Virus record (IMG/VR): IMGVR_UViG_3300033143_004906
DNA: 22,792 nucleotides
DNA from: a virus
Strand: one strand, 5' to 3'
The notes beneath the pieces are model-generated. The model made no database searches. It had not been told where the DNA came from and saw only the letters and a program-made list of their open reading frames with translations. This document shows, in pieces, positions 11,079 through 12,898 of this stretch (positions are counted from its first letter, which is position 1; every line of letters begins with the position of its first letter). The position numbers were made by a program, and so were the translations under genes.

Positions 11079-11687
11079 ATGAAACTGGACGTATATTTAC
11101 ACGGAAGTAAAGAAGATGCTACATATCTAGCAGAAGAAAATTGTGGTGATATGGATTCTAAAAGACTTTATGATTCCATATTAAACTGCACACACGAAGT
11201 TATGGTAACTTTGGATATAAATGTATTAACTGGAGATAGTAGAATTATAGCAGTTGATAAAAAGCCTATAATAGATGAAGCTCTTGAACAATCAACGAAG
11301 GAATTAGCTTTTGCATCTTTTGACGGATCTGCTCAACCAAATCCAGGTAATATGAATATCGGGTATTTAATTAAAAATACCGATGATGTAATTATTTTTA
11401 GAGAATCCAAAAATCTAGGATTCGGAACTAATAATGTAGCTGAATACCAGGCATTACTTGCCCTACTTCAGAAATCAGAAGAACTTGAAATTGAACATCT
11501 TGCAATAAAGGGAGATAGTCAGTTAATAATCAAACAGGTTCAAAAAGAATGGAAATGTAGAAAGCAAGAACTTATCCCTTTAAGAGATGCATGTATAGAT
11601 TTAATTAATAAATTCAAATCATGTGAACTACAATGGGTTCCAAGAAATCAAAATTCTGATGCCGATTGGTTATCACAAAAAAGGTAA
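11079..11687 (+). CDS. RNase H (type 1)-like domain protein with an unknown ~85-aa N-terminal domain
   Basis: Motifs FDGSAQPNPG, TNNVAEYQALLALL, GDSQLII and NQNSDADWLS match the RNase HI D-E-D-D signature (DGS..NPG / TNN.AEY / DS / N..AD.LA). Confidence 0.8.
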   Translation: MKLDVYLHGSKEDATYLAEENCGDMDSKRLYDSILNCTHEVMVTLDINVLTGDSRIIAVDKKPIIDEALEQSTKELAFASFDGSAQPNPGNMNIGYLIKNTDDVIIFRESKNLGFGTNNVAEYQALLALLQKSEELEIEHLAIKGDSQLIIKQVQKEWKCRKQELIPLRDACIDLINKFKSCELQWVPRNQNSDADWLSQKR

Positions 11688-11689
11688 TT

Positions 11690-12898
11690 ATGGAAATATT
11701 TAATTTTGATGAAGAAGTTCCCCTATACACTTGGGCGAATGAATTAGAAACTGAAGGATTACAACAAATTAGAGATTTAGCAAAACTCCCTTTTATATTT
11801 CATCATGTTTGTGTAATGCCTGATGGGCATCCTGGTTATGGTATGCCTATTGGTGGAGTTATTGCTTGTATTAATGCAGTTATTCCTAATGGTGTTGGAG
11901 TTGATATTGGTTGTGGAATGATAGCTATAAGAACTAATCTTCTTGTTGGTTGTATGACTATGAAAGAAATAAGAGAATTATTAAATAATGTCAAAAAACT
12001 CATTCCTATGGGTGAAGGTAAAGCACATAAACATCCTTGTAATTGGGATGGATTTGAAAAATATTCTAACTTTTTATTAATGACTGCAGATTTAGAATGG
12101 TATGAAACAAAAATATGGGAACTTGCTCATAGAAATTTAGGAACATTAGGTGGAGGTAATCATTTCATCGAACTTCAAAAAGGAGATGATGGTTATATCT
12201 GGTTAATGATTCATTCAGGATCAAGAAATTTAGGATATCAAATTGCCTCATATTATAACAAACTTGCACAACATCTTTGTAGACAATATTATTCTCCACT
12301 TCCAAATGAAAATGTTGCTTTTCTCCCTGCAGATTCAATTGAAGGACAGGCATATATAAGAGATATGAATTTCGCTCTTGACTATGCTTATAAAAATCGT
12401 CAAGTAATGATGAATTGTTTTAAATCATGTATTAAAGATGTATTCCCTAATGTTGAATTTGATGAAGAAATAAATATTCATCATAACTATGCAACTCTTG
12501 AAAATCATTTCGGAAGAAATGTTTGGATTCATCGTAAAGGGGCAACAAGTGCTTTTAAAGATCAACTCGGTATTATTCCCGGATCTATGGGAACTGCTTC
12601 ATATATAGTTAAAGGAAAAGGAAATAGGGATTCATTTCTATCATGCTCTCATGGGGCAGGAAGACCTATGAGTAGATCAAAAGCATCAAGAAAGTTGACA
12701 GAAAGTCAGTGTAATGATGATATGAAAGGGATTGTATTTGATCGGTGGAAAAAAATCAAAAGAGGGAGACAAAAAGGCAACCTGGACCTAAGTGAAGCTC
12801 CAGGCGCTTACAAGAACATTGAAGATGTTATGAAGAATCAAAAGGATCTTGTTGATATTGTTGTTCAACTTTTACCATTAGGAGTGCTTAAAGGGTAA
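11690..12898 (+). CDS. rtcB: RtcB-family 3'-phosphate/5'-hydroxyl RNA ligase
   Basis: Conserved RtcB blocks are present: MPDGHPGYGMPIGGV, GVDIGCGM, GGGNHFIE, HSGSRNLG, HNYA, HRKGAT, IPGSMG, SCSHGAGR, EAPGAYK. I chose the ATG at 11690, 2 nt after the RNase H stop, over the upstream ATG at 11666 because the latter overlaps the preceding gene. Confidence 0.93.
   Translation: MEIFNFDEEVPLYTWANELETEGLQQIRDLAKLPFIFHHVCVMPDGHPGYGMPIGGVIACINAVIPNGVGVDIGCGMIAIRTNLLVGCMTMKEIRELLNNVKKLIPMGEGKAHKHPCNWDGFEKYSNFLLMTADLEWYETKIWELAHRNLGTLGGGNHFIELQKGDDGYIWLMIHSGSRNLGYQIASYYNKLAQHLCRQYYSPLPNENVAFLPADSIEGQAYIRDMNFALDYAYKNRQVMMNCFKSCIKDVFPNVEFDEEINIHHNYATLENHFGRNVWIHRKGATSAFKDQLGIIPGSMGTASYIVKGKGNRDSFLSCSHGAGRPMSRSKASRKLTESQCNDDMKGIVFDRWKKIKRGRQKGNLDLSEAPGAYKNIEDVMKNQKDLVDIVVQLLPLGVLKG

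Follow-up and report, generated by a model that had tools for sequence, protein, structure and literature searches.

We analyzed a stretch of viral DNA of 22,792 nucleotides (IMG/VR record IMGVR_UViG_3300033143_004906, hereafter the window), in which a gene for an RNase H-fold protein is directly followed by a gene for the RNA ligase RtcB. An earlier reading made from the sequence alone (the sequence-only reading) had taken the DNA for a mobile element, and it is indeed a phage, since the backbone genes of the contig match uncultured huge-phage genomes of 460-595 kb. The features of the region are as follows.

8368..10683, + strand: gene for a major-vault-protein-like (MVP-like) protein (SPFH-fold shoulder plus vault repeats), at the place where 22 clade relatives have a 618-aa Band_7 protein.
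10706..10739, + strand: intrinsic-terminator-like hairpin with a 13-bp stem and a U tract, downstream of the MVP-like gene and ahead of the C84-RNase HI-RtcB string.
10753..11007, + strand: C84, an 84-aa Cys-rich protein with a CxxCxxCC motif, a recurrent neighbour of RNase HI in the clade.
11079..11687, + strand: RNase HI, type 1 (RVT_3 / archaeal-actinobacterial type), 202 aa.
11079..11312, within the RNase HI gene: residues 1-78, an orphan N-terminal extension; residues 79-202 form the catalytic domain with the DEDD residues D82, E122, D146 and D196.
11690..12898, + strand: RtcB RNA ligase, 402 aa, a lineage-specific insertion between the RNase HI and nicotinamidase-like genes.
12901..13164, + strand: p87, an 87-aa ORFan, 2 nt past RtcB and part of the same tight gene string.
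13173..13484, + strand: p103, a 103-aa ORFan with an N-terminal helix followed by a CxH...CxxC spacing.
13485..13688: spacer of 204 nt (47% G+C), the downstream end of the insertion.
13689..14471, + strand: PncA-like nicotinamidase / isochorismatase-family protein, the backbone gene that comes right after RNase HI in most relatives.

The RtcB of the window is a full-length member of its family. The Pfam RtcB profile (PF01139) matched with an E-value of 5e-114 and 382 bits against a cut-off of 27, covering positions 1-426 of 426, and PHROG 1075 matched with 8e-121. D72, C75, N157, H158, H175, H265 and H321 correspond to D95, C98, N202, H203, H234, H329 and H404 of the Pyrococcus horikoshii enzyme, and the metal-binding Asp, Cys and His residues as well as the GMP-accepting histidine were invariant in an alignment of 11 sequences. 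We predict that the protein is a canonical GTP/Mn-dependent ligase that joins 3'-phosphate or 2',3'-cyclic-phosphate ends to 5'-OH ends. The mechanically delimited ORF begins at TTG 11666; we chose ATG 11690 as the start because it agrees with the N-termini of the homologues and with the start that JGI called for the gene on sister contig L005. Since the stop codon TAA of the RNase H gene occupies 11685-11687, the gap between the two genes is 2 nt. A PrfH-associated RtcB2 was also considered and rejected: the corresponding model (TIGR03073, release_rtcB) gave 157 bits, below its cut-off of 271.8, and no PrfH/RF-like gene was found in the window.

We looked for partners of the ligase by Pfam scans of the 28 ORFs in the window that plausibly code for 70 aa or more, short ORFs nested in longer ones on other frames or strands being excluded. 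These scans detected no archease, RtcA or RtcR, and no RTC, Pnkp, Hen1 or Metallophos domain. ARAGORN found no tRNA gene in the window, an Rfam search for a Y RNA or a tRNA-like RNA as partner of the ligase gave no match of any kind at E ≤ 1, and PADLOC assigned none of ten proteins of the region to a defence-system family. The RtcB assignment, the 2-nt gap and the absence of archease and RtcA had all been put forward by the sequence-only reading and hold here. The third-position G+C (GC3) of the RtcB gene is 0.17, the same as that of the neighbouring phage genes, which suggests that the gene has long been resident in the phage.

The RNase H fold proposed before for the upstream protein is borne out as well. 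Both RVT_3 (PF13456; 3.1e-22, 79.2 bits, cut-off 21.6) and RNase_H (PF00075; 4.6e-8, 33.8 bits, cut-off 25.8) matched residues 81-201. The closest solved structures are those of the RNase HI of Sulfolobus tokodaii (2EHG/3ALY, 1e-17), the N-terminal domain of Rv2228c (3HST) and the Halobacterium RNase H1 (4E19), which have the same fold and the DEDD residues at 30-36% identity. Across the family alignment D82, E122 and D146 do not vary and D196 is nearly invariant, and the four residues line up with the active site of the S. tokodaii enzyme. In the AlphaFold2 (AF2) model, residues 76-202 have a pLDDT above 90, and the model superposes on 4E19 with a TM-score of 0.92 (normalised to the 4E19 target) and an rmsd of 1.0 Å. 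Judging from its fold and its DEDD residues, the enzyme is predicted to be catalytically intact. Most likely it removes RNA from RNA/DNA hybrids such as primers and R-loops in the DNA metabolism of the phage, a replication role to which its family and the DNA ligase genes nearby point. Unlike Rv2228c, it has no fused phosphatase domain. The S. tokodaii RNase HI also cuts dsRNA.

The part preceding the catalytic domain had been described as a novel domain of ~85 aa. Its orphan status was confirmed, but its length is about 78 aa. It was modelled with low confidence (pLDDT 54-62), it had no relatives among 1.84 billion representative proteins, Pfam at E ≤ 5 returned noise only, and in a fold search with the model the matches were confined to the catalytic domain. 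Extensions of 55-70 aa are also known from the Halobacterium-type and PRK07708 RNase H families, whereas the only detectable homologue of the 78-aa extension of the window is that of the relative L014. Thus this type of extension (type A) was seen in just two RNase H proteins, 35% identical over 60 aa of the extension and both linked to RtcB; elsewhere in the clade the extension is of another type or missing. As the two RtcB-adjacent RNase H proteins have it in common, the extension could hint at a physical link between the enzymes. A hybrid-binding domain, a dsRNA-binding domain and an archease-like cofactor were each considered for it, and the profile, representative-protein and fold searches gave nothing in support.

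Next, we compared the locus with its relatives. A megablast search with 10 kb against 50,697 phage records gave no match, and the clade comparison comprised 53 loci (about 40-45 distinct contigs), with ±5 kb examined for most relatives. The order of the block in the clade is MucR (-), p128, NADAR, Metallophos, Band-7, Cys-rich C84, RNase HI, nicotinamidase-like, vWA-like, p372, PP2C and kinase, and the comparison defines in this huge-phage clade a conserved block of ten genes. In its conserved neighbours (NADAR, Metallophos, Band-7, nicotinamidase-like, PP2C and kinase), the surroundings of RNase HI resemble a block for conflict or stress more than a replication module. In 34 of the 53 loci, at most 80 nt separate the end of the RNase H gene from the backbone gene that comes next, either Iso or p372. 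Five of the 53 loci have RtcB behind RNase H, and they represent two lineages only, that of the window (L005/L006) and that of L014-16, and in these two lineages only the distance to the next backbone gene grows to ~2.0 kb with RtcB in it. The RtcB of L014 is 63% identical to that of the window and the two RNase H proteins are 39% identical; the gap between the two genes is 17 nt in L014 and 2 nt in the window. Loci from ~40 further distinct clade contigs have RNase H at this position but no RtcB, and Metallophos is present in clade relatives, but in those without RtcB. RtcB could also lie elsewhere in the genomes of the relatives, beyond the ±5 kb compared. The comparison shows RNase HI as a fixed part of the backbone and RtcB as an insertion beside it that is specific to certain lineages. 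The same slot is occupied in other relatives by a C84-like gene plus a vWA-like paralogue (~1.64 kb) or by a Band_7 gene (L200/L209), and is an insertion hot spot.

The two genes are not associated in other phages either. Among 90 phage RtcB loci in IMG/VR, an RNase H of this type was found within 5 kb of RtcB in one, and there it lies 1 kb off with other ORFs between; conversely, no RtcB was found within 5 kb of this RNase H type in ~50 phage loci of IMG/VR outside the clade. The phage RtcB whose sequence is most similar to that of L014 belongs to L017 (68% identical to L014 and 63% to the window), and no RNase H lies within 10 kb of it. The neighbours of phage RtcB genes are heterogeneous, the commonest neighbour family being present in 6 of 88 loci. 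RtcB itself is common in phages, as at least 597 IMG/VR stretches that carry it and the match to PHROG 1075 show.

Where does this RtcB come from? Its nearest cellular relatives, ~401 aa long, are 56-59% identical to it over the full length and share all catalytic residues. All four that we examined lie in operons of the type RtcR | (Band_7) RtcA RtcB; in three of them Band_7, RtcA and RtcB stand together, and in one of these three RtcR and Band_7 are separated by a tRNA-like gene. In a neighbour-joining tree the RtcBs of the window, L014 and L017 form a small phage subclade beside the bacterial RtcR-operon group, and they are only 38-53% identical to the other phage RtcBs retrieved from IMG/VR. 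From these identities and the tree, the RtcB of the window appears to stem from a branch of bacterial RtcR-controlled (Band-7)-RtcA-RtcB operons. It resembles the E. coli-type RtcB of such operons in length, identity and catalytic residues, but the window has no RtcA, RtcR or tRNA-like gene, and its RtcB sits in a phage backbone block with a codon composition adjusted to the phage.

Taken as a whole, the locus probably holds two independent enzymes whose genes are transcribed together in a huge phage, with RtcB acting as a stand-alone ligase that reseals RNA cut by ribotoxins. RtcB and ORFan genes would have been inserted into the short gap between the RNase HI and nicotinamidase-like genes in an ancestor of the two lineages. 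Working alone, RtcB may reseal the breaks that metal-independent host ribotoxins, with anticodon nucleases, HEPN proteins and toxin RNases as candidates, make in tRNA, rRNA or tmRNA, and the resealing would keep translation running during infection. RNase H leaves 3'-OH and 5'-phosphate ends, whereas RtcB needs a 3'-phosphate or 2',3'-cyclic phosphate and a 5'-OH, so that on paper RtcB cannot join the products of RNase H. The logic is the same as in phage T4, where Pnkp and Rnl1 restore the tRNA cut by the host anticodon nuclease PrrC. T4, however, heals and then seals with a kinase/phosphatase and an ATP-grasp ligase, whereas RtcB seals 3'-phosphate or 2',3'-cyclic-phosphate ends directly to 5'-OH; it can do without a healing enzyme, in keeping with the lack of one in the window. 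The general idea of the sequence-only reading, that a phage RtcB reseals nuclease-cut RNA, agrees with a role already described for jumbo phages, whose RtcBs join the RNA ends that metal-independent RNases leave (Iyer et al. 2021, PMC7824862). Those and other phage RtcBs (PHROG 1075) belong to the same family, have the same proposed resealing role and usually have no fixed partner gene; the RtcB of the window differs in its own small subclade and in its place directly behind an RNase HI gene. That phages can undo RNA-cleaving host immunity with an RtcB of their own is known, and the window would add one more example.

RtcB may not be fully autonomous, because the same strand carries an SPFH-fold MVP-like gene 1 kb upstream and the bacterial relatives of RtcB share operons with Band-7 genes. 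One could therefore imagine that RtcB and the MVP-like protein, a true MVP homologue, form a phage version of the Band-7/tRNA-like RNA/RtcB repair system, with the SPFH protein as a scaffold or cage and RNase HI and C84 as bystanders. An association of Band-7, b7a-tRNA and RtcB has been published (Burroughs & Aravind 2016, as cited in bioRxiv 10.1101/312249), and PaFlo8 of strain PA14 sits in an rtc locus (PMC13086221). Compared with that system, the window likewise has an SPFH-superfamily protein near an RtcB of Band-7-linked bacterial descent, but the protein is an MVP homologue rather than a Band_7 protein, and neither a tRNA-like RNA nor any other Rfam RNA is present. Between the MVP-like gene and the RtcB string stands the terminator-like hairpin, a strong one (-26.8 kcal/mol, z -4.2), as none of 200 shuffled sequences folded as well. 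Moreover, SPFH genes and RtcB are not inherited together in the clade: 22 relatives have Band_7 without RtcB, and L014 has RtcB without an SPFH gene within the 7.9 kb upstream of it. The MVP-like protein showed no pairwise similarity to the Band_7 proteins of the clade or to those of the bacterial operons, and in this contig its gene is shortened at the 5' end: compared with the sister contigs, 161 nt are deleted, and the upstream start was lost with them. We regard such a system as rather unlikely.

The sequence-only reading had gone further and proposed an RNA repair or anti-ribotoxin module made up of RNase HI and RtcB. In a dedicated two-enzyme module of this kind, whether p87 and p103 belong to it or not, the lineage-specific N-terminal extension would dock RNase HI to RtcB or to damaged RNA. 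The arrangement does invite this proposal: the four-gene string of RNase H, RtcB, p87 and p103 has no internal terminator, the junction of the first two genes is tight in both lineages, the pair is kept at the divergence given above, and the type-A extension is limited to the two RtcB-linked proteins. Nevertheless, we find the module quite unlikely. The ~40 clade contigs with RNase HI and no RtcB beside it, in which the extension is of another type or absent, and the 89 of 90 phage RtcB loci without such an RNase H within 5 kb speak against it, as do the ~50 loci outside the clade, the unsealable ends of RNase H products, and L017, which lies inside the same RtcB subclade and has no RNase H within 10 kb. 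Because RNase HI is kept while RtcB occurs in two lineages only, we take them for neighbours and not for an established two-part system. The synteny in related elements that the proposal called for recurs in only one further lineage, that of L014, and the two lineages may go back to a single insertion event, which would reduce the association to one case. The useful outcome is thus negative: in spite of a 2-nt gap and an adjacency conserved in a sister lineage, no functional module emerged after ~45 related contigs had been compared.

The small proteins had been suggested as accessory factors of this module, and we rejected them as RtcB cofactors because both are ORFans without homologues. For p87 none was found in the related loci or IMG/VR, for p103 none in the related loci or 5.8 billion clusters, and both are missing from the L014 lineage as well. 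The ORFs themselves are present as described before; p103 had also been called a Zn-ribbon protein, which it could be by its spacing of Cys and His residues (C36-x-H38 ... C69-x2-C72), and its single-sequence AF2 model is confident for the N-terminal helix only. The G+C-rich spacer that follows had no relatives outside the same phage, and as a candidate structured RNA it was rejected, with fold z-scores of -1.4 on the + strand and -0.6 on the - strand and no Rfam match.

A broader possibility is that the insertion of RtcB was no accident. NADAR, Metallophos, SPFH/Band-7, C84, RNase HI, the nicotinamidase-like, vWA-like and p372 proteins, PP2C and the kinase might make up one RNA/NAD-centred damage-response system, in which the lineage of the window would have swapped Band-7 for a true MVP homologue and added RtcB, giving a vault-like, SPFH-caged, virus-encoded compartment for RNA repair to which the type-A extension would tether RNase HI. 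We hold this to be improbable. It is even harder to believe that RtcB serves the phage's own RNA processing, for example by joining the exons of phage tRNAs that are split or contain introns, or other phage transcripts: archaea and animals use RtcB as their tRNA-splicing ligase, as its Pfam and PHROG names reflect, and huge phages commonly carry many tRNA genes, but no tRNA gene or splicing endonuclease was found in the window or in any related locus examined, RtcB is missing at the site in most clade members, which argues against a core processing function, and its nearest relatives are bacterial stress-repair RtcBs.

With two independent enzymes as the preferred reading, the better leads at this locus are the ten-gene block, the descent of RtcB from RtcR/Band-7/RtcA/RtcB operons, and the MVP homologue at the Band-7 position. 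The MVP-like gene, whose product has no close relatives in IMG/VR, is a more unusual feature than the RNase HI-RtcB pair. Within the block, the 251-aa vWA-like protein is so labelled from DxTGS and TDG motifs read in its sequence, as Pfam, NCBIfam and PDB searches came back empty. C84 keeps company with RNase HI in two ways across the clade, either upstream of it, as in the window, or downstream, where it makes up the N-terminal part of a protein of 180 aa.

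Both the RNase HI and the RtcB are real and intact enzymes, and their adjacency is real. They belong to a string of genes (C84, RNase HI, RtcB, p87 and p103) separated by only 71, 2, 2 and 8 nt, on a 22.8-kb JGI metagenome contig whose genes from 7433 to 21792 are nearly all on the + strand.

8368..10683, + strand: major vault protein (MVP)-like gene (MVP_shoulder 3.4e-22; Vault_3 repeat; PDB MVP chains ~1e-11 to 1e-12)
10706-10739: 13-bp hairpin with U tract (-26.8 kcal/mol, z -4.2), between the MVP-like gene and C84
10753-11007, + strand: C84, 84 aa, Cys-rich, CxxCxxCC-type motif
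11079..11687, + strand: RNase HI, 202 aa (Pfam RVT_3 3.1e-22 and RNase_H 4.6e-8, residues 81-201)
11690..12898, + strand: RtcB
12901..13164, + strand: p87, 87 aa
13173..13484, + strand: p103, 103 aa
13485-13688: 204-nt spacer, 47% G+C, between p103 and the nicotinamidase-like gene

The RNase H fold proposed by the sequence-only reading was borne out by the Pfam matches, by the catalytic carboxylates (D82, E122, D146 and D196, all present and conserved across an alignment of 12 members), and by the AF2 model, which is confident at residues 76-202 and superposes on 4e19 with TM 0.92 and 1.0 Å. NCBIfam archaeal and haloarchaeal RNase HI models also match this ORF, and the closest solved structures are S. 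tokodaii RNase HI, the Rv2228c N-domain and Halobacterium RNase H1. The RtcB call proved equally sound: the Pfam match is full length (5e-114), and all P. horikoshii RtcB residues that bind the two metals or accept GMP are kept. Its ATG at 11690, set by the N-termini of homologues and the JGI call on a sister contig, lies 2 nt past the RNase H stop as claimed; because both genes, the start position and the catalytic residues check out, the adjacent pair is confirmed.

The window is a piece of a huge phage, because its nicotinamidase-like protein (13689..14471) has matches in three genomes of uncultured phages, 462-595 kb in size, which carry the nicotinamidase-like, vWA-like and kinase series in all three cases and PP2C in two, and because viral contigs bearing RNase H relatives reach 248 kb. 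The comparison took in 57 loci from IMG/VR and 80 from metagenomes, together with sister contigs and contigs reached via the RNase H protein. The clade is defined by a block running from MucR (minus strand) through p128, NADAR, Metallophos, a 618-aa Band_7 protein, C84 and RNase HI to a PncA-like nicotinamidase, vWA-like, p372, PP2C and Ser/Thr kinase.

6719-18951: conserved block in the window, also in the compared loci L001, L014, L020, L021, L029 and L165-L236

The last part of the block (vWA, PP2C and kinase) resembles the TerY-P triad, with the vWA recognized from motifs only and the kinase under the Pfam cut-off (25.3 vs 31.7 bits). C84, which gave no family match, accompanies RNase HI more constantly than any other gene of the clade; it lies upstream of RNase HI in some lineages, and in others it is downstream and forms the N-terminal part of a 180-aa protein. 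The MVP-like gene holds the position of the Band_7 protein in 22 clade relatives, and it looks as though one SPFH-fold protein was displaced by another. With its vault repeats and SPFH-like shoulder, this ORF is a true MVP homologue encoded by a huge phage; the Vault_3 repeat match is slightly under the Pfam gathering threshold (28.3 vs 28.8 bits). Compared with the sister contigs L005/L006, a 161-nt deletion near 8256 removes its upstream start; the protein is called at 853 aa in L005 and is 771 aa from a TTG in the window.

In 53 clade loci, RNase H was visible along with the backbone gene that follows it. The gap between them is 80 nt or less in 34 loci, a few hundred nt in several more, ~1.64 kb with a C84-like gene and a vWA-like paralogue in four, and ~1.96 kb with a Band_7 gene in two. 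A gap of ~2.0 kb with RtcB was found only in the window lineage (L005/L006) and in a second lineage (L014-16), and the ORFans accompanying RtcB differ between the two. This survey shows RNase HI to be part of the backbone, with RtcB inserted into the slot that follows it.

The nearest cellular RtcBs are 56-59% identical, and in all four genomes inspected RtcR is divergently transcribed upstream and RtcA immediately precedes RtcB; a Band_7 gene is present in three, and one has a tRNA-like gene separating RtcR from Band_7. Loci of bacterial relatives (L161/L162, 2182-2254; L160, L164) have a tRNA-Leu(GAG)-like gene between the divergent RtcR and the Band_7-RtcA-RtcB operon, and this gene probably corresponds to the predicted b7a-tRNA. 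Behind the L161 operon come a cluster of 13 tRNA genes and an HNH gene, suggesting that a mobile element adjoins it. These cellular loci represent the Band-7/b7a-tRNA/RtcB arrangement credited to Burroughs & Aravind 2016 (bioRxiv 10.1101/312249; see also PMC13086221). Unlike these operons, the phage RtcB has no RtcA, RtcR or tRNA-like RNA detectable around it in the window, and its GC3 (0.17) is the same as that of the phage neighbour genes, which together point to a long-resident, stand-alone ligase. Since viral contigs often carry RtcB (at least 597 stretches in IMG/VR) and jumbo-phage RtcB has been described as an answer to metal-independent RNases (PMC7824862), we infer that a counter-ribotoxin role is the most likely. 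The RNA-repair and counter-defence proposal is thus reasonable for RtcB itself and already known for phages, but a joint unit with RNase H is not supported; the window adds one phage RtcB and one phage RNase HI to known kinds. In the sister lineage, L014 encodes a DMP19-like protein (DNA-mimic family; 9309-9797) two genes past RtcB and, after the kinase gene, an ATP-grasp-type RNA ligase with a tRNA-binding domain (15869-16975), so that this phage has two RNA ligase types.

It is also possible that RtcB and the MVP-like SPFH protein act as scaffold plus ligase, a reading we keep because the bacterial RtcBs related to it share operons with Band_7. However, a terminator separates the MVP-like gene from the RtcB string, the window contains no detectable tRNA-like RNA, the L014 RtcB has no SPFH gene in the 7.9 kb upstream, and many clade relatives have Band_7 without RtcB.

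A dedicated module of RNase H, RtcB and the small proteins is not supported. The two genes lie close together in both lineages that carry RtcB, and the RNase H proteins of these lineages alone have the window's extension type (type A), but one ancestral event, an insertion or a recombination, explains both equally well, synteny in related elements is limited to these two lineages, and most clade loci have RNase HI with no RtcB behind it. Outside the clade, RNase H of this type was seen in ~50 phage loci, none of them with RtcB within 5 kb. Of 90 phage RtcB loci, 1 has such an RNase H, 1 kb off with other ORFs between. Phage RtcB neighbours are heterogeneous, the top family reaching 6 of 88 loci and Metallophos phosphoesterase 5 of 88. 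In a rough NJ tree the RtcBs of the window, L014 and the phage locus L017 form one subclade, and around the L017 RtcB there are Rnl2 and amidoligase genes and no RNase H within 10 kb. Moreover, RNase H leaves 3'-OH and 5'-P ends, whereas RtcB requires 3'-P or 2',3'-cyclic P and 5'-OH (for its role see PMC7824862), so by established enzymology RNase H products are not RtcB substrates. DNA ligase homologues within 5 kb of RNase HI in L165, L167 and L169 hint weakly at a role of RNase HI in DNA metabolism. An ATP-dependent DNA ligase (20252-21382, +) and a phage ABA-sandwich-domain protein (19486-19884, +) lie downstream in the window.

The supposed novel ~85-aa N-terminal domain of RNase HI is in fact an extension of residues 1-78, with AF2 pLDDT of 54-62; it has no Pfam match and zero relatives among 1.84 billion representative proteins. 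The extension type differs across the phage clade, and that of the window is common to one other lineage, L014 (35% identity over 60 aa of extension; 39% over the whole protein). The remaining RNase HI proteins mostly have an unrelated helical extension of ~60 aa, and some 5-25 residues only; extensions of similar length are found in Halobacterium-type and PRK07708 RNase H families. The small proteins p87 and p103, without homologues in related loci, are not supported as module members and are ORFans: p103 has no homologue in a 5.8-billion-cluster database and p87 none in IMG/VR. The zinc ribbon suggested for p103 comes solely from Cys/His spacing.

The 204-nt spacer, which marks where the RtcB insertion ends downstream, sits in an AT-rich stretch; it matched no Rfam family, showed no significant fold and has relatives only within the same phage, and a 95-aa minus-strand ORF (13372-13659) overlaps it. 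Codon composition in the window is bimodal, with GC3 of 0.38-0.44 in the MVP-like, nicotinamidase-like, vWA-like and p372 genes and 0.13-0.23 in every other gene measured (7433-21792). G+C is likewise ~45% in the minus-strand region 1-3000.
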